Origin: an uncultured Dehalococcoidaceae bacterium
GTDB taxonomy: Bacteria > Chloroflexota > Dehalococcoidia > Dehalococcoidales > RBG-16-60-22
Length of the DNA: 64,000 nt
NCBI GenBank assembly: GCA_964500415.1
Contig: CAZCOB010000001.1
Span: 15,204-79,203, forward strand
Direction: 5' to 3'
The stretch's first letter is position 1. Each line of letters begins with the position of its first letter. This document shows positions 16,233 to 38,860 of the stretch, piece by piece. The translations under genes and the position numbers were made by a program. The notes under the pieces were generated by a model that made no database searches, had not been told where the DNA came from, and saw only the letters and a program-made list of their open reading frames with translations.

Positions 16233-16323
<91 letters not shown>

Positions 16324-20852: not shown

Positions 20853-20885
20853 GGTCGCGTCCTTTCCACATCGTACTCTTTTTAC

Positions 20886-22592: not shown

Positions 22593-23002
22593 TACATCGC
22601 CTGCTTTCCGCTAATAATTTCTGCAAAATAGGCAGAATCAAAATGCATCCGGACGCTCTTGATTTTGTCGTCCCTGAATTCATAGATATTGGCGCAGGGT
22701 ATCTCGAACGTTTGCGCATCCCCGCCTCCCACAAGCAGCCACTCAACGGCAACCCGATTACCCTCACCGAAAACGCCCTGCACCCTGGCTTTCACCGGCG
22801 GCAGGTTTGCCAGCCATGTAAAAAAATCCTTTACCTCGTCAAGACCGGAAGCAGTGTTAGTGTCCTTGTAGCCGGCGACCTTCATAACCGGGTCCCATAC
22901 CACGGCGCTGTCGGTATAACAGGCCAGTTTTTTCTCCAGGGTCTCCGGGCCGATACTGAGGACATCGGCAGTAGCTACCTTCTTATTATTTTCTACGCTC
23001 AC
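22592..23002 (-). CDS. NTF2-like / SnoaL-like protein
   Basis: GEGNRVAVEW..IYEFRDDKIKSVRMHFD fold pattern. Confidence 0.8.
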   Translation of the reverse strand: MSVENNKKVATADVLSIGPETLEKKLACYTDSAVVWDPVMKVAGYKDTNTASGLDEVKDFFTWLANLPPVKARVQGVFGEGNRVAVEWLLVGGGDAQTFEIPCANIYEFRDDKIKSVRMHFDSAYFAEIISGKQAM

Positions 23003-23024
23003 AGAATTCCTCCATCCCGATTTA

Positions 23025-23495
23025 TTATTTGTATTGCCCCGGATTCTTTATGGCATCATCTTCAGCCGTGGGATATTTATCGGTCAAAGCAAATACCACC
23101 AGCAGGAACGGCTTATCGACACGTTTATGCATGAAGGGGCAGTGTGGCACGCCTTTCGGTACGAAAATCGTAGTCGTCTTACTAAAAGTGTGTTTTTCAT
23201 CGCCGATGTGAAATTCAATCTCGCCGCCCAACTCCCGCGGGCGCTCCGGGTCAGTCCCGATAAAACAGAGGACTTCGTCAAAATCATGGGTATGCGTCCA
23301 TTCCACGGGATCCGGCTCTGGTATCTGAAAACACCATCCGATATCTACCACCGCCGGTGAGCCTGCAATGATGTCGCCGTCGAGATAAATCTCGTCGGGG
23401 AAGGTTACTCCTTTGACGTTCTTAACCGGGTGGTAAGCAACACTTTCCACCCTGGGTTCGGTGATGAAGTATTTACCGTATTTGCTTTCCCCCAT
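23025..23495 (-). CDS. Uncharacterised cupin-like protein, paralog 2
   Basis: HTHDFDE..GTDPERPRELGGEIE..EKH..VPKGVPHCP. Confidence 0.8.
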   Translation of the reverse strand: MGESKYGKYFITEPRVESVAYHPVKNVKGVTFPDEIYLDGDIIAGSPAVVDIGWCFQIPEPDPVEWTHTHDFDEVLCFIGTDPERPRELGGEIEFHIGDEKHTFSKTTTIFVPKGVPHCPFMHKRVDKPFLLVVFALTDKYPTAEDDAIKNPGQYK

Positions 23496-23573
23496 TTTGT
23501 ATCACACCTTTCTTCCAGATATCGGCTTATAATAACAAATATCGATAAAAATTCTCCGGTCAGGATTCATATT

Positions 23574-24950
23574 TCAGTGTTTTCTACAGACATCCAGAAC
23601 AATATCAACCGCCTTTTCCAGATATTCTTTAGTGATGGTCAAGGGGGGCATGAAACGTATCACATTATGGTAGCGACCGCAGGGGACGGCGATTACGCCC
23701 CGGTCAAGCAGCCCGGACAATATTTTGCCCATGTCATCGGCGGGGAGGGGTTCCCTGGTTTCCTTGTTCTTCACCAGCTCCACCCCGATGAACAAACCCC
23801 GACCTCGGACATCCCCAACAATATTAATTTTCTTTGATTCTTCTTTAAGCCTGGCTTCTATTTCTTCACCCAGCTTGGCGGCCCTGCCCATCAGGTCGTA
23901 ATTCTTATCGGTCAGTATATCGATATTGGTCATGCAGACAGCGGCGGAGAGAGCGTTCCCGGCAAATGTACCCGGCTGGGAAGCCTCTACCAGTTTATCG
24001 GCAAAATCGGCTTTAAACGTAAGACCGGCCATCGGGAGGTCGCCACCCAGTCCCTTGCCCCATATAAGCATGTCCGGGACGACATCACTAAACTCGATAG
24101 ACCACATTTTACCGCTGCGTCCCGCCCCTGCCTGGACTTCATCGGCGATAAACAAGGCACCGCATTTTTCGCAGGCTTTCTTCAATGTCTCCATATAACC
24201 CGGCGGCGGTACCAGGTAGCCTCCCTCCCCCTGCAGCGGCTCCACGATGAGTGCGGCGACGTCATCAGCCGCAGTGTAAGGGGTATTGAGCACATAATCG
24301 ACGTATTTAGCACATTGGAGGTCACAGCTCGGGTACTCCAGGCCAAAGCAGCAGCGGTAACAATAGGCATAAGGCACGTGGATTACATAGGGCATGAGAG
24401 GACCGTAACCATGATGGTACTGGTCCCCGGTGGTCAGCGCCCCGGAACCGCACCACACCCCGTGATAGGCGCCGTGAAAAGCGACAATCTGCGCCCTCCC
24501 GGTCAAATGACGAGCGAACTTTATGGCTGTTTCCACAGCTCCGCTGCCGCTCTGGGTAAAGTAACTGACACAATTGCCACGCAAACCTTCAGGCATGATA
24601 TCGGATATTTTCCTAGCTAATTCCGTACGACGGGTATTAACCGCTTCAGCGGCGTGCATAATTTTACCCAACTGCCCCTCCATGGCCTGGACTACTCTGG
24701 GGTGTCTGCGTCCCACAGAATTTACCGCTACCCCGGCGGACATATCGATGAAAATGTTTCCGTCGGGGTCTTTCACCGCGGCGCCCATACCCTCGTCAAA
24801 AACCGGAGGAGCCGCGCTGCCGGGTCGGGTTAAAGACTCGTATTTGGGTACGTCTTTCAACACCTTGAGACTCTTGGGGCCGGGAATAGCGGTTATTATT
24901 TCCGGAGCTCCGGGGTAGGATAATTTAGCGAGTTCTGCTTCTGATATCAC
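23574..24950 (-). CDS. Class III PLP aminotransferase (GabT-like omega-transaminase)
   Basis: SGSGAVETA, FHGAYHG, EPLQGEGG, FIADEVQAGAGRSG, WGKGLGG. Confidence 0.92.
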   Translation of the reverse strand: MISEAELAKLSYPGAPEIITAIPGPKSLKVLKDVPKYESLTRPGSAAPPVFDEGMGAAVKDPDGNIFIDMSAGVAVNSVGRRHPRVVQAMEGQLGKIMHAAEAVNTRRTELARKISDIMPEGLRGNCVSYFTQSGSGAVETAIKFARHLTGRAQIVAFHGAYHGVWCGSGALTTGDQYHHGYGPLMPYVIHVPYAYCYRCCFGLEYPSCDLQCAKYVDYVLNTPYTAADDVAALIVEPLQGEGGYLVPPPGYMETLKKACEKCGALFIADEVQAGAGRSGKMWSIEFSDVVPDMLIWGKGLGGDLPMAGLTFKADFADKLVEASQPGTFAGNALSAAVCMTNIDILTDKNYDLMGRAAKLGEEIEARLKEESKKINIVGDVRGRGLFIGVELVKNKETREPLPADDMGKILSGLLDRGVIAVPCGRYHNVIRFMPPLTITKEYLEKAVDIVLDVCRKH

Positions 24951-25031
24951 AATTTTACCCTCCTTGTTAAGGATGTATTATGTAAATTTATATCGTACGA
25001 CTATTCTATAATCACAGGTATAAATACCTGA

Positions 25032-25862
25032 TTAAAAGCCGTTACCGCGAGATAATTGACCGCCGTCTATATAGATAGTCTGTCCCGTAACCCAGTCGGA
25101 TGCCTCTGATGCAAGATATACCACCAGCAGTCCGATTTCACGTATTTCACCTAATCGCCCCAGAGGAACCCTCTCCAGTATTGCCTTCTTTCTCTCCGGG
25201 TCATCGAGCACGGGCGCGCTTAATTCGGTATGAACGCTCCCGGGACCGACGGCATTAACGCAGATGTTATAAGGGGCCCACTCCGTGGCCAGGCAGCGGG
25301 TAAACATACTCAGGCCGGCTTTACTGACACAATATGCCGAAAAATAAGGAGGAGCCAGCTCGGCACTGTTCGAACTGATGTTAATGACTTTCCCCTTTTG
25401 CCGCCCCATCATATGCGGACCCACAGCCTGCGCGAAGAGAAAGGCACTGGTCAAATTGGTATTTAAAACAAGGTGCCATTCTTCTTCGGTTAGCGGTGTA
25501 TCCCAGCTATCTGCGGTCTGCCAGCCCTCGAGCTTCATCCCGGCTACGAAAGCAATGGGTTTGAGAATGGGTATGCCGGCATTATTTACGAGGATATCTA
25601 TTTTACCGAATTCTGAAACGGTTTTGGTAACTGCATTTTCCACGTGCTCTTTCTTGAGCACGTCGGTCGGAACAACCAGTACGCTACGCCCCAACTTGCG
25701 TATCTCTTTAGCCGCGTTTTCTAGCTGCTCCTCGGTGCGAGCCGCCAGGGTAACGTTCGCGCCGGCCTCAGCGAGAGTCTGGGCAATCCCCCTGCCGATG
25801 CCCCTTCCCGCCCCTGTTACGATAGCTACCTTGCCTTGAAGACTGTATTCCTTAAGAATCAC
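25032..25862 (-). CDS. SDR family oxidoreductase
   Basis: TGAGRGIG, NNAG, YCVSK, NAVGPG. Confidence 0.92.
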   Translation of the reverse strand: MILKEYSLQGKVAIVTGAGRGIGRGIAQTLAEAGANVTLAARTEEQLENAAKEIRKLGRSVLVVPTDVLKKEHVENAVTKTVSEFGKIDILVNNAGIPILKPIAFVAGMKLEGWQTADSWDTPLTEEEWHLVLNTNLTSAFLFAQAVGPHMMGRQKGKVINISSNSAELAPPYFSAYCVSKAGLSMFTRCLATEWAPYNICVNAVGPGSVHTELSAPVLDDPERKKAILERVPLGRLGEIREIGLLVVYLASEASDWVTGQTIYIDGGQLSRGNGF

Positions 25863-26929
25863 TTATCTCCTGATTTCTTATAATCGCTGATTAACCTCTT
25901 TACCTCGTCATAAACTGCACGAGCCGGTAATCCCATATCTTCAACTTCTTCCATCCACGCTAACGTAACCGATTCAGCGGTTTTCCTCCACTCTTCTATT
26001 TCTTCATCATTAAGAGTCGAGAAAGTATTACCCAGCTTCTTAGCTTCATTGATTGCCTTTACAATCTCAGCTTCATCTATTGAAATATACTTTTCCTCAA
26101 TCCAGGAAGAATTGCCTAAAATAATTTCCCGGATATCCTCAGGAAGCTTATTCCAGACTACCTCGTTTGCCCACATGCCATGCATGCCCATGCTGATACC
26201 GGCATCGCCGAAATCCGTATGATAATGGAAAAGGGGAATGAGACCGTAGCCACTGACGGCCGACCAGTGTACCATGATACTGTCGGCAAGGCCTGTTTCC
26301 AGGGATGTTTCCCAATCAGGTGGCCCCACGCTGGTAATCGGGGTGGCACCTGCGTTAGTTGCAATTTCAGCCAGGCGACCGGACGTAATAACTTTTATAC
26401 CTTTGTAATCCGCGGGGATACGTACTTCACGGTTAACCATATGTATCTGATTGGGCGGCATACTGCATATCCATAACAACCTGGTACCTTCAAATTCCGC
26501 TTCTAACTCCGGGAATTTGGGAAATATTTCATGGTATATATCAGTTGCCATTTGCATATCTTCCCACCCCATGAACGGCAAGCCGGTGAAGCCGTTAAGA
26601 GCGTGCAGCGCAGGGTCTTCACCGAAACCGATTACGAAATAACCGATATCAGTCATACCCGTTTGGATGGCCTTCCAGGTATCGCTCGCTTTTACCAGAG
26701 ACTGGCCCCAGTAAAAGGTAAATTTTACCCTGCCGCCGCTCTGTTCCTCGATAATTTCCGCCCATTCTTCATTGACCTTGGAGATGGGTAGCTGGGACGG
26801 ACCCCAGGTAGAAACCTTTAGCTCTAGCGGCTTTTCTACCGTTGGCTGCGGAGCATTTTCAGCGCATCCTCCAAGGACCGCCAGACCTGTAAGCAGTAAC
26901 GTTAGAAATATTGTTATATTTTTTTTCAT
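25859..26929 (-). CDS. dctP: TRAP substrate-binding lipoprotein (DctP family), orphan
   Basis: Lipobox LGGC; SGGRVKFTFY, GLPF, DYKGIKVI, SLETGLAD; no DctQ/DctM in the window. Confidence 0.85.
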   Translation of the reverse strand: MKKNITIFLTLLLTGLAVLGGCAENAPQPTVEKPLELKVSTWGPSQLPISKVNEEWAEIIEEQSGGRVKFTFYWGQSLVKASDTWKAIQTGMTDIGYFVIGFGEDPALHALNGFTGLPFMGWEDMQMATDIYHEIFPKFPELEAEFEGTRLLWICSMPPNQIHMVNREVRIPADYKGIKVITSGRLAEIATNAGATPITSVGPPDWETSLETGLADSIMVHWSAVSGYGLIPLFHYHTDFGDAGISMGMHGMWANEVVWNKLPEDIREIILGNSSWIEEKYISIDEAEIVKAINEAKKLGNTFSTLNDEEIEEWRKTAESVTLAWMEEVEDMGLPARAVYDEVKRLISDYKKSGDK

Positions 26930-27009: not shown

Positions 27010-27096
27010 GATATTGCTTTCAGAGTATATCATACAGCCATGTACTTCAAGATACTATTAGTCTCTATCTTTTGGACTACAAAGTATATCTTTTGG
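27010..27096 (-). promoter_or_regulatory. Regulon promoter block A, driving the dctP operon
   Basis: Gene-strand GTCCAAAAGATAGAGACTAATAGTATCTTGAAG-N15-TATACT; homologous to blocks B and C. Confidence 0.75.
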
Positions 27097-27153
27097 CTGA
27101 AACGAAGACGTGTCAAGTATCAATTTTAACCGCTTTTTGTTAAAATACAGATT

Positions 27154-27861
27154 ATGAACGACATTGTCCCAGCAGCAGAACAAAATAATGAAGAACCGAA
27201 AAAGACTTCAATTATTCTGGCAGACGACCACCCAATCGTGCGCAAAGCTCTCAGGAACGACCTCGAAAAAGAAGTTGATTTTATTGTTCTGGCAGAGGCC
27301 GGCGATGGTGAAGAGGCCGTGACACTTGTTTCCGAGCTAATCCCAGATGTAGTGATTATGGATATCGGAATGCCTAGGATAAACGGCATAGAAGCAACTC
27401 GACAAATAAAATCAACCCACCCTGACATCATCGTACTGGTTCTTACCGTCTATGATGACGTCGAACATATACTCGGTATACTTGAATCCGGGGCTGACGG
27501 GTACCTGACAAAGAATATACTGGTCGAAGACATCATTAAATCCATACGTTCCGTTGTAGCCGGCGAAACGGTACTATCTCCTCAGGTTTTTCAACAAGTA
27601 TTAAAATACGCTCTTAGACACAGTATTAAACCTATACGTTTAGATACCGGAGTGAAGCTTACCGCGCGTGAACTGGAAATTCTTCAATTAATCGCAAGGG
27701 GTATCAGCAACAAAGAAATAGCGAATGAGTTGAATATAAGTTCACGCACTGTAAAGAGTCACATGGTTGATATATTTCGTAAGTTAGACGTGTCCTCCAG
27801 GACAGAGGCAGTTATTACTTCACTAAGAATCGGCTTCATTAATATTAATAATATCGGCTGA
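27154..27861 (+). CDS. NarL/LuxR-family response regulator
   Basis: ADDH, PDVVIMDI, GYLTK, LTARELEIL..NKEIA..TVKSH. Confidence 0.95.
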   Translation: MNDIVPAAEQNNEEPKKTSIILADDHPIVRKALRNDLEKEVDFIVLAEAGDGEEAVTLVSELIPDVVIMDIGMPRINGIEATRQIKSTHPDIIVLVLTVYDDVEHILGILESGADGYLTKNILVEDIIKSIRSVVAGETVLSPQVFQQVLKYALRHSIKPIRLDTGVKLTARELEILQLIARGISNKEIANELNISSRTVKSHMVDIFRKLDVSSRTEAVITSLRIGFININNIG

Positions 27862-27873
27862 TAAGGCACTGGT

Positions 27874-28965
27874 ATGAAGCGGCTTGCAGACATAAAATTC
27901 GCAGACGGAATTAGCATATTCCGTAATTTTCACTTCTGGGCCATAGTAATTATTATGCTTGGCCTAACTTTCATGTATTACTCTGATATTTTATTTATCA
28001 ATCTTTTTAACCAGAGATGGAGCTGGTTGTGGCACCTGGTAATTTTTGAATTTAACAATGATATACACGGCAGCCTTTTTGTCATCCCGTTTGTATACGC
28101 AGCGGTAATATTCTGGTGGCGCGGTATTCTACTTACGTGGCTATTTACCATGGTCGTAATGATACCCAGAATTTACTACTACGCGCCTGACATTAACTCG
28201 TTAATCACCAATATATTCTTGTTATTAGTGCCACTACTGATTGTGGCTATCCTGGCCTTACAGATAAAGTGGAGGGAGGCCGAAAAGAAGGCATCAATAG
28301 AACGCGAAAAAGAACGTCAGGCTTACATGGCTCGTATCTTTATCTCTCAAGAAGAAGAGAGAAAAAGGATTTCAAGAGAGATTCACGATGATACAACACA
28401 GAGGTTATGGATAGTAGCAAATGACGTGCGGAGGCTGGCAGTTGATAAAATCCGCAGTATTGATTCCCAAACAGGGGACGATCTCGAAGCGATTAAGGAC
28501 ACCGTGTTAAATATAGCTGAGGATACGAAAAGGTTAAGTCTTGCCCTAAGGCCTGGTATACTGGATGACCTTGGTCTCGTCCCGGCGATGAGGTGGCTGG
28601 TCGACCAACTAAATAGAGACGATTCTGTCCAGGCAAAGGTATCTGTGGAGGGCCGCCAACGTTCGCTAAACCAGGAGATTAACAATCATTTATTCCGTAT
28701 TGTCCAGGAAGCCTTGAACAATATAAGGCGACACGCAAAAGCAACTGAAGTGAACGTTAAACTTGTATTTTCTAAAGAGACCGTAAAATTATTAGTTCAA
28801 GACAATGGCAAAGGTTTTGTATTTAAAGATATTGACAATTTCCCACATCAGGAAAGAATAGGGATAATAGGAATGCAGGAAAGAGCCAGATTGCTTAAAA
28901 GTAATTTACAAATTTCTTCCAAGTCGGGTAAAGGTACAACTGTTTCGGTTGAATTCAGAGAGTAG
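27874..28965 (+). CDS. HisKA_3 sensor histidine kinase, intramembrane-sensing type
   Basis: About 4 N-terminal TM segments with short loops; QEEERKRISREIHD, QEALNN, DNGKG, GIIGMQER, GKGT. Confidence 0.94.
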   Translation: MKRLADIKFADGISIFRNFHFWAIVIIMLGLTFMYYSDILFINLFNQRWSWLWHLVIFEFNNDIHGSLFVIPFVYAAVIFWWRGILLTWLFTMVVMIPRIYYYAPDINSLITNIFLLLVPLLIVAILALQIKWREAEKKASIEREKERQAYMARIFISQEEERKRISREIHDDTTQRLWIVANDVRRLAVDKIRSIDSQTGDDLEAIKDTVLNIAEDTKRLSLALRPGILDDLGLVPAMRWLVDQLNRDDSVQAKVSVEGRQRSLNQEINNHLFRIVQEALNNIRRHAKATEVNVKLVFSKETVKLLVQDNGKGFVFKDIDNFPHQERIGIIGMQERARLLKSNLQISSKSGKGTTVSVEFRE

Positions 28966-29000
28966 ACCGTATACTAATTAAATCCATCACGGCTAATACA

Positions 29001-30071
29001 TTAATTCAACTTATACTCTAAGTATTCATATTTACAGGGTTGTCCCCAGGTAGCATACAGCACTCCGTCTTCCGGCACCATGATTTCCGCGGCGAGCGTC
29101 TCGCCAAGCTGCACTTCCATGTCGGTGTGTTTACAGATAGAACGCGGGTAATCGGTATGGTCGGTCAGGAACTCTTCCATTAACTCGACAGTCAGTTCGC
29201 CGTAGTGTTCTTCCATGAGCCTCTTTAACCGTTGGATACGAACGTAACTGTCTCCCTCCATGAAACCGAACATTTTATCGCCCTTCTTAAATCTCTCCGT
29301 GATGTAATGGTTCGTGTGGACCAGCATGTCTCTTTCCGGCTGTATCACGTTATAGTCGCCCGGCCTGGTCTCAATTCCGATTATATCCCCCTCGGCGCTG
29401 GCAAAACCGTAGTAGAGTATACTGCGCCCGGCCCCACATACGACCCCCAGGGCATCACCAATCCTCTTCTGCCTCATCGCCTTCGGTATTACACAAGCAC
29501 AGGGTACGTTGAGTGTCTGCTGTTCGGCAGGACTCAACATGACATTTAAAACCATCCCCAGACCCGCCGTGGTCAGGGATAGCTCCCCGACTCCTCCGCC
29601 TGCGAACACCAGGGATAACTGCTCCAGGCCATCCGGGAATTTCGTTTTCACCAGGTCTATGCTGATTCCGGGATTGAGGTCGTACGTCTGCCCGATGATA
29701 GTCTTGCCTCCCCTGGTCGCATTCCCCGTGGCTATGAAAGACGTACAGAGCGCCGCTATACGCTGGTAATACATGCCTACCTCAAGCCTGCACCTCAACG
29801 CGAAAACCTCATCAAAACTCACCCCCGCTCCATCTGCCTGTCCCTTCAGCGTTTCAATTAACTCCGGGTCGAAACTCTCTACCAGCGGGAGATACTTCCT
29901 GGCATTGGCAATAATGTCTTCCTTGCCGGTTTTCTGAAACATGCTGATATCACTGAAAAGCGAATCGATAGAACCGATAAGGCTGTCCCGGCAGTACTCG
30001 CCATACTGCCTGCCGATTTCGTAAAAACTACCGCTACATTCGATTAATTTGTACTCTTTCCTTTCCTTCAC
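29001..30071 (-). CDS. C45 family autoproteolytic acyltransferase/hydrolase, paralog 1
   Basis: ALCTSF cleavage-site Cys, GQTYD, HTNHY, SICKH. Confidence 0.88.
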   Translation of the reverse strand: MKERKEYKLIECSGSFYEIGRQYGEYCRDSLIGSIDSLFSDISMFQKTGKEDIIANARKYLPLVESFDPELIETLKGQADGAGVSFDEVFALRCRLEVGMYYQRIAALCTSFIATGNATRGGKTIIGQTYDLNPGISIDLVKTKFPDGLEQLSLVFAGGGVGELSLTTAGLGMVLNVMLSPAEQQTLNVPCACVIPKAMRQKRIGDALGVVCGAGRSILYYGFASAEGDIIGIETRPGDYNVIQPERDMLVHTNHYITERFKKGDKMFGFMEGDSYVRIQRLKRLMEEHYGELTVELMEEFLTDHTDYPRSICKHTDMEVQLGETLAAEIMVPEDGVLYATWGQPCKYEYLEYKLN

Positions 30072-30216
30072 CTACTGCTCCTTTTTCCCGTCATCCAGTA
30101 ATAATACGCATAATCACTCTCAATGTACACCGCAATACAGTCAGGCATACAGGCCAGATATGCACTCCCGCTGAATTTAAGGATAAAGCTAAAATTCTTA
30201 TGAATAACCTGTATTT

Positions 30217-30624
30217 TTAATCCGGATAAGCGGCTATTGCATCCACCTCTACCTTAAAGGTGTCCACAGCCAGCCCATCCACAACTGCGAGCGTCCCGGT
30301 ACTTGGTTTTTCTTTCAAATCCGGCGCCAGACGGTAGCACTCTTGATGGAATTTCTGTATTACCTCGACGGGGTCCGCGGCGCCCTTCTTCATATAAAGA
30401 GTGTGTTTTATCATGTTTCCTATGGAAAGGCCGATTTCCTCCAGCGCGGCGTTCATCTTCTTCACAACCACCTCTATCTGTGCATTTATGTCCTCAGGGA
30501 CCGCTCCACCCTTGTCAAAATCCATTGCCTCTGTTCCGGAAAGGAAAACCAGCTTGCCGACCGTCAGCGTTTTGCAGATGTCCATCTGCATTCCTTCAAA
30601 ATACGTGCGATGATAATTATCCAT
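30217..30624 (-). CDS. Rid/YjgF family protein lacking the catalytic Arg
   Basis: LVFLSG, KVEVDAIA; PAR motif replaced by PSTG. Confidence 0.85.
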   Translation of the reverse strand: MDNYHRTYFEGMQMDICKTLTVGKLVFLSGTEAMDFDKGGAVPEDINAQIEVVVKKMNAALEEIGLSIGNMIKHTLYMKKGAADPVEVIQKFHQECYRLAPDLKEKPSTGTLAVVDGLAVDTFKVEVDAIAAYPD

Positions 30625-30661
30625 TTGTAACCTCCTTTAGTGTTTTTAATATTAACAGGGA

Positions 30662-32371
30662 TTATTTACCCAATCCGGCACTATATACAATCTCGCCGCC
30701 AACTATCGTCATCAAGGTACGTATATCTTTTATTCTTTGCGGTTCGACGGTTAGAATATCTTCGTCTAAAACGCAGAAATCCGCCAGCTTTCCTTCTTCG
30801 ATAGAACCTTTGATGTCTTCTGCGTGGTCCTGCCAGGCGCCTCCCACCGTAAACATGCGGATGGCTTCTTCCACAGTTACGTGCCGGGCTGGCTCACCCT
30901 CCGTCGCATAATTTCGTAAAACGATGGACTGTATTGTCGCCTTCCAATCAGGATACGTAACCGGAGCGTCGGAACCACCGGCAATATGAACGCCGGCATC
31001 AAGCAATGTTCTTAAACACCCGTATTGTGCCGCTCTTTGCGTACCCACGGAATACGGCAGCAAATTCATAACGATATCAGCTAGAGCCGGCTGCACCGAA
31101 ACGCCAATGTTATACATATTCATAAGCTTCGCTCCCTCGGGTGATACATAATCTCCGTGAATAAGGTAATGCCTGAGCTTCTTCGGCTCTTCGCGTTCGG
31201 CTTTTACAAAACTGTCAATACACGCGTCGATAGCTCTATCTCCCGTAACGTGAACGCCTACCCGGAAACCAAGTTTATGACAATGGGCCACGATTTTCAT
31301 CAGTTCAGTGCAGCGTTCTTCGTCGGTTTCACCGGTGAAAATCATTTTACCGTTGCCACCATCTTCGTAATCTTTGTACATCCAGGCGGTCTTGTTCAGG
31401 GGTATACCATCGGCAAAGAGTTTGACTCCGGCCATTCTCACCCGCTCAGTGTTAAAATCGGAATTCGTCCCTAATTGAGATAGTCCATCATATAATGCTT
31501 GGGGGTCGTATGAGCCGTACGGTGTAAATAGCATCATGATGCCTACCCTTAGAGAAAGCCTGCCCGCATTATCAAGCTCTTTGTAAACTTCGATACACTC
31601 TTCATTCCACAACCCGCCCTGATATCCGGTGCCGCCCGGGCCAAGAGCCCCCTCGGTTATGCTCGTTATACCCAGCGAATTCAGTTCCTTCACAGCGGTA
31701 AGAAGTGCTTTTCGCTTTTGTTCTCGTGTCAAATCGGGAATAACGCTGGCGACCATCTCTCCCAGTTGCGCCCCCCTCAGCAAACCGGTAGGCTCTCCGT
31801 TTACCGGGTCTTTGACTATCTCACACCCCGGAAGCGCCGGTGTATCCCCGGTGATTCCAACCAGTTCCAGGGCCCGGGTATTAAGCCAGGTAACACTCTC
31901 TCCGATAGTAAAAGGAATCACACCAAGACAAACAGGATTGACAGGAGATACCAGGTCCAGGTCCCATCGTGTCGGGTACCTTGCGGGACTACTTTTACAT
32001 TCCTTCAGTGTACCCAGATTTAACCCTGACCCCCGGATCCATTTACCGGGTTTGGTCTTTTTAGCCTGCTTCCCAACTGCGTTCACAATATCGCGAATCG
32101 ACTTCATAGCAGGGTAACCGGCATCAAGTACCACAGGCGGTCTCGACCCCCAGTAGAGGGCTGCATGGATATGGGCGTCATTAATACCCGGAAGCATGGT
32201 TTTCCCTTCCAGGTCTATGATTTTTGTCTGCCTGTCACCCAATGCTTTAATATTATCGTTAGTGCCAACGGTTACTATTTTCCCGCCCTTTACTGCAACT
32301 GCCTGGGCGATGTAAAAATTCCCGTCAACTGTGATTATATTGCCATTAATAATTATCAAATCTGCTGACAT
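30662..32371 (-). CDS. YtcJ-like amidohydrolase, paralog 2
   Basis: PGINDAHIH, KLFADG, HVTG, RHYLIHGD, GSDAPV, GSIEEGKLAD. Confidence 0.9.
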   Translation of the reverse strand: MSADLIIINGNIITVDGNFYIAQAVAVKGGKIVTVGTNDNIKALGDRQTKIIDLEGKTMLPGINDAHIHAALYWGSRPPVVLDAGYPAMKSIRDIVNAVGKQAKKTKPGKWIRGSGLNLGTLKECKSSPARYPTRWDLDLVSPVNPVCLGVIPFTIGESVTWLNTRALELVGITGDTPALPGCEIVKDPVNGEPTGLLRGAQLGEMVASVIPDLTREQKRKALLTAVKELNSLGITSITEGALGPGGTGYQGGLWNEECIEVYKELDNAGRLSLRVGIMMLFTPYGSYDPQALYDGLSQLGTNSDFNTERVRMAGVKLFADGIPLNKTAWMYKDYEDGGNGKMIFTGETDEERCTELMKIVAHCHKLGFRVGVHVTGDRAIDACIDSFVKAEREEPKKLRHYLIHGDYVSPEGAKLMNMYNIGVSVQPALADIVMNLLPYSVGTQRAAQYGCLRTLLDAGVHIAGGSDAPVTYPDWKATIQSIVLRNYATEGEPARHVTVEEAIRMFTVGGAWQDHAEDIKGSIEEGKLADFCVLDEDILTVEPQRIKDIRTLMTIVGGEIVYSAGLGK

Positions 32372-32441
32372 TCGCTCTAAACCTGTCTTTGAGTTCCATT
32401 TTAACTATATAAATCTTTACGGCATCAAGACACAAAAAGCC

Positions 32442-32527
32442 GATATTGCTTTTAGGGTATATTAATCTATTATGCGGTTCAAGATACTAATAGACTCCAC
32501 CTTTCGGACAATAATATATATCTTCCG
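32442..32527 (-). promoter_or_regulatory. Regulon promoter block B, driving amidohydrolase-rid-C45
   Basis: 62/83 ungapped identity to 27010-27092 by manual count; -10 TATACC. Confidence 0.75.
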
Positions 32528-32754
32528 TTACAATCGAATATAAAACTCTGGAAATTAGATTAAAAATTAAATCGATCTCGTTGATTTTTTTGCGGGTGCA
32601 TACATTGGCTTTATAAGAAACATATCATTATCATCACTTTCCCAGCCGCCCCCCGATACCGCGATAACTGTATCATACCGGGATTATTGTCAATCTGTTG
32701 GGGTAATATTTAAAGCTTATACTTTCAATCCCATCAAAAAGTACGTACTGAGTT

Positions 32755-32819
32755 GTCCAAAAGATGGAGGCTATTGGTATCTTGAAGTATAAAATACGTT
32801 GATATAATCTGAGAGTAAT
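32755..32819 (+). promoter_or_regulatory. Regulon promoter block C, driving the ABC operon
   Basis: GTCCAAAAGATGGAGGCTATTGGTATCTTGAAG-N15-TATAAT-CTGAGAG; inverted copy of A and B. Confidence 0.75.
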
Positions 32820-32990
32820 TGTAAGTTGCTCGTGTTTCTCTCAATGAAAATTCCAAACATAGAAGCAACAGCGTGACGGTCTGAATCTGTGAAGAAGGAG
32901 GTGCAATATTTAAATAATACGCAATAGTGTGACCACTTGTTTACAAAATGGACTGAAAAGTCTCTCCCCTGTAATAAAGGAGGAAAAATA

Positions 32991-34667
32991 GTGAAAAAGT
33001 ATTTTATAATTATTTGTGCGATAGTAATAATCGGCTCGCTGATACTTGGCGGTTGTGCCGAACCTGAACCAGAACCGGCACCAGCGCCGGCACCGGCACC
33101 GAGTCCAGAACCGGCACCGAAACCGAGTCCAGAACCGGCACCGGCACCGAGTCCAGAACCGGCACCGGCACCGAGTCCAGAACCGGCACCGGCACCTGAT
33201 CAGCCAAAGTACGGCGGCACGTGGACCATCATGTCGGACACAACTCCCACCAATGTTAACCCCCCGGCCGATGGAGGTTCTTTGTCGACCAGGCATCTTG
33301 TCCCCTGCCTGGAGCCATTACTCCGGCTAGGCGAAGGTGGAGTTCTCCAAGGGCATCTGGCGGAATCCTGGGACGTTTCTCCCGACGGTACCGCCATCAC
33401 CTTCCACCTGCGCCAGGGCATCAAGTTCCATGATGGCACCCCCTTTAATGCCGAGGCGGTCAAATATAACCTGGAAGCAACCGCGGCATCAGGCCTTTGG
33501 GGCGTTGGTATCCTGAACGTTGCCACATCTTATGACATCCTTGACGACTATACCATCCGGGCGAATCTTGACGGCTTCAATTACAGTTACATAACCGCGC
33601 TGGCCGGGCTTGCCGGCATGATCGCATCGCCAACAGCTTTACAGATACCCGCCGAGGACGAAGAACTCCCCGAGCTCCACATGGTAGGCACCGGGCCTTT
33701 CATCTTCGATAGCTTCAAGCGGGATGACTATGTCAAATATACGAAGAACCCGAACTACTGGCAGGAAGGTAAGCCCTACCTCGATGCGGTTGTCTTGAGG
33801 AACATCGCCGACCGAACCGTCGCGTTGATGGCTTTCCAGGCGGGCGAGGCGGACGAGTGGGCGACAGGACTCCAACTGGCTACGTCGAATATGCTGGAAG
33901 AGCAGGGCTACATTATTAGATCATATCCGCTGCGGTTCCATTTTGCCATGGTGTATGACAGCGCGGACCCGGCTTCTCCATTTGCCAACCAAAAAGTACG
34001 CGAAGCTGTTCACTATGGTGTGGACAAGCAGACTCTGGTTAATGGTATCGGCGGCGGCGCAAAGAGAGGATTTACCGCTCTGTATCAGATGGCTGAGCCA
34101 GGCGACCCGTGGTATTGCCCCGAACTGCCGATTCGCGCATACGATCTGGCAAAAGCCAAGCAGATGCTGGCTGACGCCGGTTACCCCGATGGGATAAAGA
34201 CAACGCTCATTTCGGACACCTTTGCGGAGACGAACTTCTTAGAGGCCCTGCAAATCGAGCTTAAAAAGATGGGCATCGATACCGAACTTGACATTGCGGA
34301 TTTTGGTAGGATAACCTCTCTAGAGATGGGCGGTTGGGAAGGTCTGTTGCATCCGGGTTTCCCGACCTCCGATACCATCTCGGGTCTTAACTCCCGCTGG
34401 GGCGACCCGTCCTTCTTCGTCAGTATGTACAAGCCGGCCGGATGGGATGACATGTGGGCTGCAATGATGGCCGAGGTTGACGATAACAAGCGTATAGAAA
34501 TGATGAAAGATATAGTTAGACTCGACTATAATGAGTGTTTAACCTTTACCTGGAGGGCGGATGCTCCTTTCGGAGTGAATGATGGAACCAGTCATGGTTT
34601 CGTACTTCACGCCGGTGGTGCCATGGACATCTGGTGGCCGGAATTCGTTTGGAAAGAACAAAAATAA
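32991..34667 (+). CDS. Family 5 (Opp/Dpp) ABC substrate-binding lipoprotein with a Pro-rich linker
   Basis: Lipobox LGGC; LAESWDVS..LRQGIKFHDGTPFNAEAVK, GTGPF; GGAGG RBS before GTG 32991. Confidence 0.93.
   Translation: MKKYFIIICAIVIIGSLILGGCAEPEPEPAPAPAPAPSPEPAPKPSPEPAPAPSPEPAPAPSPEPAPAPDQPKYGGTWTIMSDTTPTNVNPPADGGSLSTRHLVPCLEPLLRLGEGGVLQGHLAESWDVSPDGTAITFHLRQGIKFHDGTPFNAEAVKYNLEATAASGLWGVGILNVATSYDILDDYTIRANLDGFNYSYITALAGLAGMIASPTALQIPAEDEELPELHMVGTGPFIFDSFKRDDYVKYTKNPNYWQEGKPYLDAVVLRNIADRTVALMAFQAGEADEWATGLQLATSNMLEEQGYIIRSYPLRFHFAMVYDSADPASPFANQKVREAVHYGVDKQTLVNGIGGGAKRGFTALYQMAEPGDPWYCPELPIRAYDLAKAKQMLADAGYPDGIKTTLISDTFAETNFLEALQIELKKMGIDTELDIADFGRITSLEMGGWEGLLHPGFPTSDTISGLNSRWGDPSFFVSMYKPAGWDDMWAAMMAEVDDNKRIEMMKDIVRLDYNECLTFTWRADAPFGVNDGTSHGFVLHAGGAMDIWWPEFVWKEQK
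33093..33194 (+). repeat. Coding tandem repeat, 4 x 24 bp (PSPEPAP[A/K])
   Basis: CCGAGTCCAGAACCGGCA at 33099, 33123, 33147 and 33171. Confidence 0.95.
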
Positions 34668-34702
34668 ATAGAGATAGCTGAAGAAAAGGAATATATACAT
34701 AT

Positions 34703-34739
34703 CGGTGGAGGGGCCGGACACGCTCTAACCCCTCCACCG
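34703..34739 (+). terminator. 11-bp GC stem-loop after the SBP gene (terminator or mRNA stabiliser)
   Basis: CGGTGGAGGGG / CCCCTCCACCG; no U-tract. Confidence 0.6.
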
Positions 34740-34966
34740 GAGTAGAACTTAATAGCTTTATTCTGGTTCTCTGCCTGAATGAACCTTCTGGAATGTATGA
34801 AATAGAAATCAGATTTAAATATAACCTATAACTATAGAAACAACAGAGTTCTTTGATGGTTCAAAGGGTGCCAGTACTTCGAAAGTAACTCCGCCGGCGC
34901 GGTACCTTTTGTAATACACTTCAAATAATAACATGTAAGCGAAAATAAGCCAGCGAGAGGTCTTGA

Positions 34967-35929
34967 ATGGCAGGCTACGTGATTCGCCGATTATTCATGG
35001 GTCTTATTGTCGTCATAATAGTGACCATCCTGGTATTTCTCCTGATACGGCTTCTGCCGGGTGACCCGCTCTTGGTGTATCTAACCCAGCAGCAATACAG
35101 GGATACGGCTTACGACCCTGCCCAGCTGGCACAATTGCAGGCACAGTATGGCCTGGACAAACCACTGCCCATACAGTATATATCCTGGATAGCGGATATG
35201 TTCCACGGCGATTTCGGAGAATCAATTAATCTTAAGGAGCCGGTGTCGAAGCTGATTGGAGAACGCTTACCGGTGACCCTACACCTGAGTATCATTGGCG
35301 CCATATTCGCTACAGTTTTCGGTATAGGTTTCGGCATAATCTGCGCTTTAAGGCGAGGCACGTGGCTGGATACCGTGCTTACTTTCCTGGCAAACATAGG
35401 TATAACTATGCCCAGCTTCTGGGCAGCTATTCTGCTCATATATCTGTTCGGCCTCAAGCTGGGCTGGGTGCCGATCGGGGGTTACACATCACCGTTCGAG
35501 GACTTCTGGTTGAACACCCGCCAGATAGTATTGCCGGTTTTCTGCATGTCGCTCTTCGGCCTGGCATCAAACACGCGCCTGACGCGTTCCTGTATGCTTG
35601 AGGTCGTCGCTCAGGATTATATTCGCACAGCCTGGGCTAAAGGCCTGAAAGAGCGGGTTATCGTCCTCAGGCATACCATTAAGAATGGCTTAATACCCTT
35701 AATTGCCAATATGGGTTTCCTGGTCGCCGGCCTGTTCGGCGGTTCGGTGATTATCGAGACTTTATTTAACATTCCCGGTGTCGGGAGATTATTGACAACA
35801 GCTATTCTCGGGCAGGATTACATGATTGTTCAGGCCAGCACTTTGCTGATGGTGGTACTGATAACATTCGCCAACATTGCAGTGGATATTTCCTACGGTT
35901 GGCTTGACCCCAGGATAAGATATGATTAA
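34967..35929 (+). CDS. ABC permease, DppB/OppB-like
   Basis: RLLPGDP, QDYIRTAWAKGL EAA-type motif. Confidence 0.93.
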   Translation: MAGYVIRRLFMGLIVVIIVTILVFLLIRLLPGDPLLVYLTQQQYRDTAYDPAQLAQLQAQYGLDKPLPIQYISWIADMFHGDFGESINLKEPVSKLIGERLPVTLHLSIIGAIFATVFGIGFGIICALRRGTWLDTVLTFLANIGITMPSFWAAILLIYLFGLKLGWVPIGGYTSPFEDFWLNTRQIVLPVFCMSLFGLASNTRLTRSCMLEVVAQDYIRTAWAKGLKERVIVLRHTIKNGLIPLIANMGFLVAGLFGGSVIIETLFNIPGVGRLLTTAILGQDYMIVQASTLLMVVLITFANIAVDISYGWLDPRIRYD

Positions 35930-35940
35930 GGAGTTCTGGT

Positions 35941-36855
35941 ATGGCAGATAGTCCAAACCCCCGCGCCCCGCTAAGCGATACTGTGACGTCGGACGTACCT
36001 TTAAAAAAGTACAGTGAATTTAAGCGCACCGTAGCCGTATTCTTCGGGCGGCCGCTCCCCGTCGCTGGCCTGGTAATTATCACCATTTTTATTATCATTA
36101 CTATTTTCGGCCCCTGGCTGGCTCCCTACGACCCTCTTGATATGGATGTCATGAGCTCGTTAGCGCATCCCAGCAGCAATCACCTCCTCGGCACCGACGA
36201 AATAGGCCGAGATACCTTGAGTCGTTTGATTTACGGCGCGCGTACTTCGCTGTTCATCGGCATCGTGGTCATCGGTGTATCTTCGGCTATTGGTGTACTG
36301 CTGGGTCTTATTGCCGGGTATTCCACCGGAGCACTGCATCATGTAATTATGAGAATTACCGATGGTCTGATGGCCTTTCCGAGTATAATACTGGCTCTCC
36401 TTATCGCCGGGTTGCTCGGAGGTGGTCTGCAGAATGTCATTATAGCTCTGACCGTTGGTATGATAGCGCCGGTTATCCGTATAACATGTGGTACGGCCAT
36501 GTCTATTAAAGAAAATGAATATATTATGGCTGCACGGGCAATGGGCGTGAGCAAACTGAATATTATGATTAGCGAAATTTTACCTAATTGCTTCGCTCCG
36601 ATACTGGTGATGATGACCATGGGAATTGGTGCGACCATTCTGGCGGAGGCGGGGCTCAGTTTTCTGGGGGTAGGTATCACCCCACCGACACCGGTCTGGG
36701 GACGCATGGTAAATGACGGCTATCGATATCTCCTTACCAATCCCGAGTTGTCAATAGCACCTGGCCTGGCGGTCATGCTGGTAGTCTTCGGTTTCAATAT
36801 GATGGGTGATGGCCTGCGGGATGCACTCGACCCGAGGCTGAGAGGTGTTATCTAG
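35941..36855 (+). CDS. ABC permease, DppC/OppC-like
   Basis: HLLGTDEIGRD, EYIMAARAMG. Confidence 0.93.
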   Translation: MADSPNPRAPLSDTVTSDVPLKKYSEFKRTVAVFFGRPLPVAGLVIITIFIIITIFGPWLAPYDPLDMDVMSSLAHPSSNHLLGTDEIGRDTLSRLIYGARTSLFIGIVVIGVSSAIGVLLGLIAGYSTGALHHVIMRITDGLMAFPSIILALLIAGLLGGGLQNVIIALTVGMIAPVIRITCGTAMSIKENEYIMAARAMGVSKLNIMISEILPNCFAPILVMMTMGIGATILAEAGLSFLGVGITPPTPVWGRMVNDGYRYLLTNPELSIAPGLAVMLVVFGFNMMGDGLRDALDPRLRGVI

Positions 36856-36887
36856 TTATTGCTCAAAGAATAAGCAAGGAAGTTGAC

Positions 36888-37880
36888 ATGGAAGCTCTGC
36901 TAAATGTTGAAAATCTTAAGACTTACTTCAATACCTACCACGGACAGGTTAAAGCTGTAGATGGCGTCTCCTTTCATATAAATCAGAAAGAGACTATTGG
37001 TATAGTGGGAGAGAGTGGTTGTGGTAAATCGGTGAGTATGTTGTCAGTAATGCAGTTAATCACCACGCCACCGGGTGATATAGTTGACGGCAAGGTTATC
37101 TTCGAAGGGAATGATTTGCTCCAGTACAATGCTAAAGGCGATGTAATGTGTTCTGTCCGCGGTGGGAAAATTAGCATGATATTTCAAGAGCCGATGACCT
37201 CGCTTAACCCAGTACTGACTATTAACCGGCAGTTAACCGAAACGCTGGAGCGGCATCTCGGTATGGACCCCCGTGCGGCCAGGCTGCGCGCTATTGACCT
37301 GCTGAAGCTGGTGGGTATCCCTGAAGCTGAAAAACGCATTGATGCCTACCCGCACCAGTTCAGCGGCGGTATGCGCCAGCGAGTGATGATTGCCATGGCA
37401 ATCTCCTGTAATCCGGAAATACTGATCGCCGATGAACCTACCACAGCTCTAGACGTAACCACTCAGGCGCAGATATTAGACCTCATGAAAAAAATGACAG
37501 AGAACTTGAATACTTCTCTTATTATCGTCACACACAATATCGGCGTAGTCGCCCGTTATGCCGAGAGGATTTATGTCATGTACGCCGGTCGCATCGTTGA
37601 GTCTGGCCATTCCTACGATATATTTGACAACCCGTGCCATCCATACACAATAGGTCTTCTTAAGTGCGTACCTCAGTTGGGAGAAACACGAAACACGAGA
37701 AAACTGGTACCGATTACCGGTATGCCTCCCAACCTGATTGATATGGCCCCAACTTGCGCTTTTCTCCCAAGATGTACTTATCGAACTGAAAGGTGTAAAC
37801 GAGAGCCTTGGCCTCCGTTAAGACAAATAGATGGTCAGCATTATATATCGTGTTATGTTGATACTTGGGAGAAGAAATGA
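36888..37880 (+). CDS. ABC ATPase, DppD-like
   Basis: [29 protein letters not shown] and Cys-rich tail. Confidence 0.94.
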
Positions 37881-38860
37881 AAGAAGCAGCGGATGACTCA
37901 GTAATAGAAGTAAAAAACCTGAAAATGTACTTCCCCATAACAGCAGGCATATTGCGGCGTAAAGTCGGCGATATTAAAGCTGTAGATGACGTGAGTTTCA
38001 AGATAAAGAAAAATGAAACGCTTGGCCTAGTTGGTGAAAGCGGGTGTGGCAAGACCACTGTTGGTCGCTGCATCTTACGCCTTTATCGACCTACCTCCGG
38101 AAATATCACATTTCTCGGACGCGATATATCAAAGATGCCGGAACACCATATTAGACCGATGCGCATACACATGGGCGCTATTTTCCAGGACCCGTATAGC
38201 TCACTTAATCCACGCCAGACGGCCCGCAATATCGTCGGTAAGCCGTTGAAAACCCATAACCTCGTAGGAATGAATGAGTTTAATACCAAGGTATCCGACC
38301 TTTTCAATCTCGTCGGTCTTAACCCCGTAATGATGAACCGCGTTCCTCACGAGTTTAGCGGCGGCCAACGACAGCGTCTGGCTATTGCACGTGCATTAGC
38401 TTGCCAGCCTTCACTGGTAGTCTGTGACGAGCCTATTTCAGCTCTCGACGTTTCGATTCAAGCTCAGATAATTAATATCCTTGAAGAAATCCAGGATATG
38501 ATGGGATTGACGTATCTCTTTATTGCCCACGACCTCTCCGTGGTGCAGCATATCAGCACTCGTGTAGCTGTCATGTATCTGGGACGCATCGTGGAGATAA
38601 CAAACGCGGAGGAACTCTACTCCAATCCGCTGCATCCATATACCAAGGCTTTGCTTTCGGCGGTACCGATACCGAATCCGCATATTGAAAAAAACCGCCA
38701 GCGTATCGTCTTGAAGGGCGAGGTGCCCAGTCCGGCTAATCCGCCGAGTGGTTGTCACTTCCATCCACGCTGCGATTTAGCTACTACAGATTGCATGGAG
38801 ACAAAGCCGACCTTAAGGGACGTTGGTAACGGCCACGAGGTGGCCTGTTTCAGGGTATGA
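37877..38860 (+). CDS. ABC ATPase, DppF-like
   Basis: GESGCGKT, FSGGQRQR, HPYT, CHFHPRC; ATGA overlap with the upstream gene. Confidence 0.94.
   Translation: MKEAADDSVIEVKNLKMYFPITAGILRRKVGDIKAVDDVSFKIKKNETLGLVGESGCGKTTVGRCILRLYRPTSGNITFLGRDISKMPEHHIRPMRIHMGAIFQDPYSSLNPRQTARNIVGKPLKTHNLVGMNEFNTKVSDLFNLVGLNPVMMNRVPHEFSGGQRQRLAIARALACQPSLVVCDEPISALDVSIQAQIINILEEIQDMMGLTYLFIAHDLSVVQHISTRVAVMYLGRIVEITNAEELYSNPLHPYTKALLSAVPIPNPHIEKNRQRIVLKGEVPSPANPPSGCHFHPRCDLATTDCMETKPTLRDVGNGHEVACFRV

Follow-up and report, generated by a model that had tools for sequence, protein, structure and literature searches.

Three homologous promoter blocks as a candidate local regulon of a NarL/VraR-type two-component system in an uncultured Dehalococcoidaceae bacterium

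Several well-described two-component and LuxR-type systems provide the background against which a new promoter element next to a NarL-type regulator has to be read. The NarL and NarP proteins work on operators built from the heptamer TACYYMT in the so-called 7-2-7 arrangement, and class II activators of the LuxR/FixJ kind occupy sites such as the lux box, centred at -42.5, where a LuxR-type dimer sits on a compact 20-bp palindrome. The UhpB/UhpA and MctS/MctR pairs regulate transporter genes, with UhpB sensing through a transporter-like partner, and the DesK/DesR pair of Firmicutes acts at Pdes and at related ABC-transporter promoters. To our knowledge, next to nothing is known of how transcription is controlled in the uncultured, non-dehalogenating Dehalococcoidia of salt marshes, and a literature search for a system of this kind in Dehalococcoidia returned nothing relevant. 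Here we analyse a 64-kb stretch of DNA (hereafter, the window) from an uncultured Dehalococcoidaceae bacterium, in which three homologous promoter blocks surround one regulator and kinase gene pair.

The regulator, the kinase and the three transcription units

The candidate binding protein is a response regulator of the NarL/VraR family (27154-27861, plus strand) with a REC domain (PF00072, 7.6e-27) and a GerE helix-turn-helix (PF00196, 5e-21), and it is encoded by the sole transcription-factor gene among the scanned open reading frames of the 16-52 kb stretch. Its best PDB matches are VraR and NarL (about 1e-37), and it falls below every NCBIfam equivalog cut-off, the top match being NarL (172.5 bits; cut-off 250); orthology with NarL, VraR, DesR, MctR or UhpA is not supported, all scores lying under these cut-offs. 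Only 12 nt downstream starts a HisKA_3 histidine kinase gene (27874-28965, plus strand; PF07730 and PF02518), whose product has about four membrane segments within residues 1-130 and no extracytoplasmic domain. An exact-protein look-up found the same organism only, on a 7.8-kb Logan contig.

Each block serves a different transcription unit. Unit A (17474-26929, minus strand), the extent of which we infer from same-strand packing, encodes a DctP-type solute-binding protein (SBP), an SDR, a class III aminotransferase, a cupin, SnoaL, Amidohydro_3, MFS, DUF169 and C45-like proteins, and the first target of block A is the TRAP-type DctP gene itself (25859-26929, minus strand). Unit B (29001-32371, minus strand) encodes an Amidohydro_3 protein, a RidA-like protein and a C45/AAT autoproteolytic hydrolase, with the amidohydrolase gene (30662-32371, minus strand) facing block B. 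Unit C (32991-38860, plus strand) encodes an SBP_bac_5 lipoprotein together with an OppBCDF-like ABC transporter, and it may extend into AFOR, flavodoxin and further genes.

These orientations bear on the autoregulation through block A that the original prediction had considered possible. Block A is not upstream of the regulator in the sense direction: both A and B face genes on the minus strand (the SBP and the amidohydrolase), and A is therefore divergent from the regulator gene. The latter has its own conserved extended -10 element, TGTTAAAAT (27138-27146, plus strand), and the distance between the block A boxes and this promoter shifts by 7 nt among relatives, which leaves autoregulation unsupported. 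The regulator mRNA is probably leaderless, as its extended -10 ends 7 nt before the ATG and no Shine-Dalgarno sequence precedes it.

The conserved core and its promoter context

The central element is a 32-nt core, GTCCRAAAGRTRGAGNCTAWTRGTATCTTGAA, present in three copies in the window against a chance expectation of 0. The block A copy, GTCCAAAAGATAGAGACTAATAGTATCTTGAA (27046-27077, minus strand), spans the predicted positions -60 to -29 in the promoter of the DctP operon; the block B copy (32478-32509, minus strand) belongs to the promoter of the amidohydrolase-RidA-C45 operon, and the block C copy (32755-32786, plus strand) to that of the SBP_bac_5/Opp-like ABC operon. The homology first claimed for these blocks held in every count. 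Blocks A (27010-27092) and B (32442-32524) align without gaps at exactly the 62/83 positions first counted by hand, the best of 200,000 random pairs of 83-mers drawn from the window reaching 40/83, and the inverted third copy (32755-32819), taken as its reverse complement, shares 49/65 positions with A and 48/65 with B. The proposed consensus core, with up to three mismatches allowed, has exactly three matches in the window and none in 100 dinucleotide-preserving shuffles, and a repeat search of the window gave 74-84% identity among the three blocks.

All of them show an operator-type architecture of repeated 6-7 bp boxes in direct and inverted orientation, which in block A read AAGATA (first direct repeat, DR1), AAGATA (second direct repeat, DR2) and inverted TATCTT, with variants in B and C. 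The YAYCTT boxes were correctly placed 21 bp apart, at 27066 and 27087 in A and at 32498 and 32519 in B. The DR1 box of block A, GCCAAAAGATATAC (27084-27097, minus strand), thus lies 21 bp upstream of the matching core box, a spacing of 21-23 bp in relatives; that of block B, ACGGAAGATATAT (32516-32528, minus strand), is more weakly conserved in L090 and L091, which are more distant relatives, and block C has a DR1-like box, TCAAAAAGTACGTAC (32734-32748, plus strand), which in relatives reads CAAAAGGTACATAC. The string TATACT is also found inside DR1.

The fixed geometry proposed for the three promoters was confirmed as well: a TATAMY -10 hexamer lies 16 nt downstream of the core in all three copies, and also in 20/20 of the promoter instances collected from relatives, with a TG extension in types A and C. 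Block A has the extended -10 TGATATACT (27024-27032, minus strand), of high information content over the 20 promoters, followed by a conserved start-site-proximal box, CTGAAAGCAATATC (27010-27023, minus strand), around a predicted start at about 27017. Block B combines a -10 hexamer devoid of TG (TATACC, 32456-32461) with the start-site box CTAAAAGCAATATC (together 32442-32461, minus strand; predicted start about 32449), and block C the extended -10 TGATATAAT with the start-site box CTGAGAGTAATTGT (together 32800-32822, plus strand; predicted start about 32815). In A, B and C the -35-like TTGAAG stands 15 nt from the -10 rather than 16-18 nt, and because of this spacing none of the three promoters was called in a consensus sigma-70 scan with 16-18 nt spacers, a result consistent with activator dependence. 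The RNA runs searched for this locus included one lake metatranscriptome with 5% of the sampled words of the ABC-transporter SBP, and the DctP region was present in none.

The 20 distinct promoter instances come from related Dehalococcoidia MAGs and metagenome contigs representing at least nine genomes or populations, invariably with the same three gene types downstream and in constant orientation. Between genomes the core is 97.5% identical (pairwise 0.975 for the block A core in five genomes), DR1 0.90 and the block A start-site box 0.857, as compared with 52% at the four-fold synonymous sites of the regulator gene and 35% in the remaining 5'UTR. Contigs of related strains align across block A and diverge to either side. 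The variable core positions (5, 10, 12, 16, 20 and 22) have no 3-nt periodicity and the 16-nt spacer is mostly different among A, B and C; conservation is therefore motif-like, neither that of coding DNA nor that of a fresh duplication, and a coding reading of the block was rejected for the lack of codon periodicity. Taken together, these comparisons support the view that the blocks are promoter-proximal elements under strong purifying selection.

Proposed mechanism and alternative readings

We consider it rather likely, from sequence comparison, that the three blocks, as homologous operator-promoter modules, serve a single local regulon activated by the phosphorylated regulator. In this scheme we infer regulator binding, activation, the transcription starts and the signal. 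The membrane-embedded HisKA_3 kinase would respond to a signal that is probably related to the substrate taken up, and would phosphorylate the NarL/VraR-type regulator, which would then bind as an oligomer to three boxes per promoter: DR1 (CCRAAAGRTR, about -79 to -69), DR2 (the same CCRAAAGRTR, about -58 to -48) and the inverted YATCTTGAA (about -37 to -29). DR2 and the inverted box would form a dyad centred at about -43, as computed from predicted transcription starts only, where the regulator would recruit RNA polymerase to a promoter that lacks a canonically spaced -35 and has a good -10 (with a TG extension in A and C). Such a geometry agrees with activation from a position over the -35 region, and the outcome would be co-induction of TRAP-type SBP and Opp-like ABC uptake together with amide/amine-catabolic enzymes. 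The near-invariance over 32 bp is longer and stricter than is typical of NarL-family half-site pairs, which may point to a contribution from polymerase contacts or a second factor.

The strongest competitor keeps the same regulator and the same operator and reverses the sign: the regulator, in its phosphorylated or unphosphorylated form, would be a repressor that occupies -60 to -29, perhaps with the start-site box, and keeps polymerase out, and induction would be derepression. A site that covers the -35 region, together with a conserved box over the predicted start, could suit repression equally. This CTRAAAG box is akin to CCRAAAG and lies 52 bp (about five helical turns) from DR2, and the TG-extended -10 elements of A and C can function without a -35 and might give activator-independent transcription. 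However, promoter B carries the same block although it lacks TG and its -10 is weaker (TATACC or TATATT), none of the promoters has a canonical -35 at 16-18 nt, a direct repeat as far upstream as about -75 is typical of activator arrays, and uptake and catabolic operons under two-component control are usually positively regulated. We therefore regard repression as unlikely.

An improbable alternative is that the block belongs to a different, unlinked factor, either a global regulator or an alternative sigma factor with an unusual -35 region, and that its two-component neighbours are incidental. An invariant stretch of 32 bp at a fixed 16 nt from the -10 does resemble a promoter-class signature, the invariant TTGAA with its 15-nt spacing is odd for sigma-70, and the link to the regulator rests on sequence comparison. 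A global factor should nevertheless have many sites, and there are only three in 64 kb, with no further copies beyond these promoter ones and no strays in 1.4 Mb of related loci. The metagenome matches are all A, B or C promoters, except for those in L082, L087 and L092, which lie inside an IS6-like transposase ORF and were discarded as chance. Moreover, in regulator orthologues gathered by a genome-contig scan, the motif was found at 4/4 genome-collection loci with a regulator at least 67% identical, and it adjoins the regulator gene on the metagenome contigs L084, L089 and L093, whereas PWM and nhmmer searches found it at none of 76 loci whose regulators are at most 57% identical and have other recognition helices. 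Diverged copies near these distant regulators were also sought by repeat finding, PWM, an ATCTTGA/-10 pattern and nhmmer, with nothing convincing. One locus, L006, has merely a look-alike with the same promoter geometry.

The block also accompanies the regulator and kinase pair into an unrelated operon at a single locus, L005, on which the co-occurrence in a different gene context depends. There, identity is 67% for the regulator and 52% for the kinase, the recognition helix SSRTVKSHMVDIFRKL is the same as in the window, and one diverged core copy is located between the regulator and DctP genes; the operon consists of DctPQM and pyrogallol-transhydroxylase-like molybdoenzymes, with 0 enzyme families in common with the operons of the window. 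The proposal that the blocks are the operator of the regulator at 27154 is partly supported, autoregulation apart, in that within the loci scanned they occur only at the three promoters flanking the two-component system and track orthologues of its regulator, L005 included; a PWM scan of related loci, a check suggested at the outset, found none near the 76 distant homologues. A wider and doubtful idea is that kinase, regulator and operator make up a portable cassette, the constant first target of which, a TRAP-type SBP lipoprotein, doubles as the ligand-sensing partner of the sensor-less kinase, and that this cassette has been re-wired onto unrelated Chloroflexota catabolic islands, amide/amine here and pyrogallol-transhydroxylase-like in L005. 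If this were true, the 32-bp invariance would stem from a tetramer of the regulator and from polymerase contacts, at a promoter whose spacer is 15 nt.

Very improbable is that the block works as RNA, a transcribed leader or hairpin of AAGRTR and YATCTT, instead of as a DNA operator: the 6-bp inverted repeat on the gene strand does tolerate G-T (G-U) and the pair of positions 12 and 24 shows A-T, G-T and G-C states, but the stem is just 6 bp and its loop 11 nt, L005 and block B of L091 have T-T mismatches, no Rfam family matched the block at its gathering score (the only matches in the window being three tRNAs), and no promoter would transcribe the block in sense, because in every case it occupies the upstream margin of a divergent intergenic region and precedes the conserved -10. 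Finally, a recent neutral duplication or a small functionless mobile repeat is ruled out by the pattern of conservation across genomes, despite the clear homology of the three copies (74-84% identity) and the paralogues of the island (two Amidohydro_3 and several C45 genes): the core is kept at 97.5% between genomes with near-saturated synonymous sites (and a 5'UTR at 35%). In addition, similarity ends with the block, leaving out the unrelated coding genes on either side, the blocks keep a fixed orientation and a fixed distance to the gene downstream, and a MITE- or REP-like element is contradicted by the absence of terminal repeats and extra copies, with all three at promoters.

The local regulon under the linked regulator, if correct, provides a concrete candidate for this group, with three promoters, one candidate regulator and defined boxes. 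The motif joins some 30 kb of uptake and amide/amine-catabolic genes, at present poorly annotated, in a single candidate co-regulated unit, which aids functional annotation, and regulator and site are small enough for in vitro work without cultivating the organism. The finding is of a solid yet ordinary kind, and it leaves the understanding of the NarL-type regulator family unchanged.

Comparison with known systems

The predicted dyad at about -43 (from predicted starts), over the -35 position and with a good -10 and no canonical -35, resembles class II sites of the LuxR/FixJ kind, although the half-sites lie 17 bp apart, centre to centre, and are accompanied by an extra upstream direct repeat, unlike in the lux box. 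On the kinase side, UhpB and MctS are the best NCBIfam matches and share the membrane-embedded N-terminus and the HisKA_3 domain; however, the scores are far under the cut-offs of such equivalogs (144 vs. 700 and 137 vs. 408 bits), the N-terminal domain is much shorter here, at about 130 aa, and a UhpC-like partner is missing.

NarL is the best NCBIfam match of the regulator and among its best PDB matches, and the bottom-strand box TAYCTTT agrees at about 5/7 positions with the NarL heptamer, with several boxes in mixed orientation. In contrast, the inverted boxes are 11 bp apart here and 2 bp apart in NarL operators, there is no nitrate-respiration context, and the recognition-helix residues presumably differ from those of NarL. 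The DesK/DesR pair offers a similar partnership between a regulator of the NarL family and a HisKA_3 kinase with several membrane segments, devoid of an extracellular sensor domain. In the PDB comparison DesR ranks among the relatives of the regulator (3e-27), with VraR and NarL scoring higher, and the regulator is not a DesR orthologue. The box sequence is also different. The Des system controls a desaturase or one ABC pump, whereas three operons for catabolism and uptake are the targets in the window.

Conservation and anatomy of the three blocks

The three blocks are a real, strongly constrained cis-regulatory module. The original prediction held that 27010-27092 and 32442-32524 align without gaps at 62 of 83 positions and that 32755-32819 is an inverted third copy; we obtained the same count, the top match among 200,000 random 83-mer pairs drawn from the window being 40/83, and the reverse complement of the third copy matches A at 49/65 and B at 48/65 positions. 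The proposed consensus core, GTCCRAAAGRTRGAGNCTAWTRGTATCTTGAA, occurs exactly three times in the window, even with three mismatches permitted, and never in 100 dinucleotide-preserving shuffles. These cores lie at 27046-27077 (block A, minus strand), 32478-32509 (block B, minus strand) and 32755-32786 (block C, plus strand), with upstream boxes at 27084-27097, 32516-32528 and 32734-32748, and -10 elements at 27024-27032 (TGATATACT), 32456-32461 (TATACC) and 32800-32808 (TGATATAAT), respectively.

On the gene strand, and relative to the predicted start, the module opens with a direct-repeat box (DR1, CCAAAAGATA-like, predicted at about -79 to -69), followed by the core at about -60 to -29, which includes the same box again (DR2, CCRAAAGRTR), a conserved centre, GAGnCTAWTRG, and an inverted box, YATCTTGAA. 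DR1 and DR2 are 21-23 bp apart, start to start, and the YAYCTT boxes said to recur 21 bp apart in blocks A and B are indeed present. On the 3' side of the core come a 16-nt spacer, as had been claimed, and then TATAMY, with a TG ahead of it in promoter types A and C, and CTRAAAG..AAT covers the predicted start. The predicted starts are about 27017 and 32449 on the minus strand and about 32815 on the plus strand; if transcription begins 7 nt past the -10, the centre of the inverted pair AAGRTR-N11-YATCTT falls near -43. The TTGAAG within the block stands 15 nt from the -10, and therefore a standard sigma-70 scan with 16-18 nt spacers did not report promoters A, B and C.

In the A intergenic alignment of five genomes, mean pairwise identity is 0.975 in the 32-nt core, 0.90 in DR1, 0.86 in the start-site box, 0.82 in the 16-nt spacer and 0.35 in the remainder of the 5'UTR, which has indels; in the regulator gene, 84 four-fold synonymous sites average 0.52. 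The B-C intergenic alignment has the same conserved islands in a poorly conserved background, and the -10 is highly conserved over 20 promoter instances. In four salt-marsh runs, contigs of related strains can be aligned to block A and differ from the window sequence on both sides of it; their sole difference within the core is at 27058, also variable in the consensus. Among A, B and C the 16-nt spacer is mostly different. A recent neutral duplication, which the original prediction had raised against itself in a form extending into flanking coding DNA, is excluded by the core identity of 0.975 vs. 0.52 at four-fold sites and by the A/B/C similarity, which ends at the block, the downstream genes being unrelated; the same block-limited similarity, together with the cross-genome constraint, excludes a mobile repeat, and a coding function is rejected because the variable core positions have no codon periodicity. 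Rfam holds no family match for the block.

The direct-repeat boxes change together within one promoter and form unlike pairs between genomes, namely AAAAGATA/AAAAGATA in the window (27046-27097), AAATGATA/AAATGATA in block A of L004, a contig of a related genome (9893-9945, minus strand), and CCAnnnGTTG/CCAnnnGTTG in the more distant L005 (9879-9935, minus strand); the L004 B and C promoters keep AAAG. This joint change could stem from templated correction between neighbouring repeats or from selection keeping the affinities of the boxes equal.

Gene neighbourhood and relatives

Each block points into its own, different transcription unit. Block A leads into a minus-strand unit whose first gene encodes a DctP-type TRAP solute-binding lipoprotein (25859-26929), followed by an SDR, a class III aminotransferase, a cupin, a SnoaL protein, an Amidohydro_3 enzyme, an MFS transporter, a DUF169 protein and a C45-like protein. 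Block B precedes Amidohydro_3 (30662-32371), a RidA-like protein and a C45/AAT autoproteolytic hydrolase (29001-30071), and block C precedes an SBP_bac_5 lipoprotein (32991-34667), an OppBCDF-like ABC transporter and, beyond it, an aldehyde:ferredoxin oxidoreductase and further genes. Between blocks A and B sit a NarL/VraR-type response regulator (27154-27861; REC + GerE) and a HisKA_3 kinase (27874-28965), so that block A is divergent from the regulator gene and not sense-upstream of it; no further transcription-factor genes were detected among the scanned ORFs of 16-52 kb. About four hydrophobic segments lie within the first 130 residues of the kinase, which lacks an extracytoplasmic domain. 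Both proteins score under every curated equivalog cut-off; among the curated families the regulator matches NarL best, and the kinase MctS and UhpB. The closest solved structures of the regulator are VraR, NarL, ChrA, DevR and DesR.

The DctP-type lipoprotein looks orphan, because a scan of ORFs across the window detected no DctQ or DctM genes; in L005, by contrast, DctQ and DctM follow the block-controlled DctP. An orphan solute-binding protein beside a kinase without a sensor domain could be a co-sensor.

The units belong to a roughly 30-kb island (17474-47305), where the block stands at three promoters only and which is rich in paralogues: the two Amidohydro_3 genes at 20886-22592 and 30662-32371 are in stretches about 72% identical as DNA, genes of C45/AAT-like type lie at 29001-30071, 46247-47305 and, weakly, 17474-18733, and there are three MFS genes and SnoaL-like genes. 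Genes for an aldehyde:ferredoxin oxidoreductase, a flavodoxin/ferredoxin protein and a phosphotriesterase-family protein are present as well. In the variable 175-nt leader of the SBP_bac_5 gene, two islands, 32894-32926 and 32960-32988, are conserved in relatives and read GAAGGAGGTGCAATATTT... and GTCTCTCCCCTGTAATAAAGGAGGAAAAA; RNAalifold pairs an upstream GGAG with CUCC, and the CUCUCCCC stretch could pair alternatively with the real Shine-Dalgarno sequence just downstream, so this leader, which has no Rfam match and lacks covariation because its elements are invariant, may act in translation as an anti-SD/anti-anti-SD switch. Immediately behind this lipoprotein's lipobox (LGGC), a 12-nt-periodic repeat (33055-33196) encodes a Pro/Ala/Glu-rich linker (PEPAPAPS...). 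Elsewhere, tandem long-arm tRNA genes (16098-16184 and 16233-16319; 71% mutual identity) lie about 1.2 kb past the far end of transcription unit A, a third tRNA gene lies at 1728-1800 on the minus strand, and G-rich intergenic repeats (CGGGATAAGC..GATGATGCGAGGGCGG..., families D4, D9, D11, D13, D15 and D16) with associated segments recur at three or four sites over the window's final 12 kb (52191-52352, 56700-56873, 62774-63206).

A scan of genome contigs with the regulator placed the window in uncultured Dehalococcoidaceae, with regulator identities of 92, 91 and 89% in the related loci L002-L004, 67% in L005 (labelled a Chloroflexia MAG), 57% in L006 and lower values in others. L002-L004 each carry the three blocks, with 0-1 mismatches, and L005 has a single diverged copy with 6 mismatches. 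Scanning the metagenome collection with a degenerate 20-base pattern returned 12 stretches, nine of them promoters of type A, B or C from relatives, flanked by the same genes; the other three were dismissed as chance matches inside an IS6-like transposase ORF. The DNA runs bearing the locus are salt-marsh metagenomes, and the distinct promoter instances number 20 in total.

The adjacent regulator and its predicted action

Judged from sequence, the adjacent NarL-family regulator very probably has its operator in this module, a link that is correlative but consistent. The regulator/kinase pair adjoins blocks on every contig long enough to show it. In L005, where regulator and kinase have 67% and 52% identity, the recognition helix, SSRTVKSHMVDIFRKL, is the same as that of the window, and the diverged block lies within the regulator-DctP intergenic region, its operon encoding DctPQM and pyrogallol-transhydroxylase-like molybdoenzymes, not amidohydrolases; the travelling set is kinase, regulator, DctP-type first gene and block. 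At 57% identity or less, regulators have other recognition helices (shown for L006-L010), and neither PWM nor nhmmer found block copies within 10 kb of any of 76 such loci.

Beside the 57%-identity regulator of L006, the divergent solute-binding protein gene, which has a GC-rich 12/18-nt repeat similar to that of the window's SBP_bac_5 gene, is preceded (930-1050, minus strand) by GGCCAAAAGTCCGTTGAAC-N15-TATATC-CTTTAGC and two further CCAAAGTACAC-type boxes. This look-alike has the same TTGAAC-N15-TATATC geometry and CCAAAG boxes, the boxes being diverged, and may serve a sister system as its operator.

The best-supported model, and on present comparisons a probable one, is that the phosphorylated regulator would bind the block as a composite operator and activate three promoters that have a good -10 without a canonical -35, so that the genes for taking up and breaking down an amide-, amine- or peptide-like substrate would be co-induced. 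The main rival, repression through the same site, we consider unlikely: the overlap of the block with the -35 region, the CTRAAAG box at the predicted start and the extended -10 of A and C would suit a repressor, but promoter B has a weak -10 and no TG. Autoregulation through block A, also proposed originally, found no support, given that the regulator gene has its own conserved extended -10, TGTTAAAAT (TGTTAGAAT in relatives), and its distance from the boxes differs between relatives by 7 nt. In the stretch 27138-27156 this -10 ends 7 nt before the ATG, which suggests a leaderless regulator mRNA with a predicted start at about 27153-27154 (plus strand); the gene has no Shine-Dalgarno sequence.

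The motif of this predicted operator is new, and the regulator belongs, as an uncharacterised member, to a kind of system that is well known; the near-invariance over 32 bp is notable, yet within known mechanisms.
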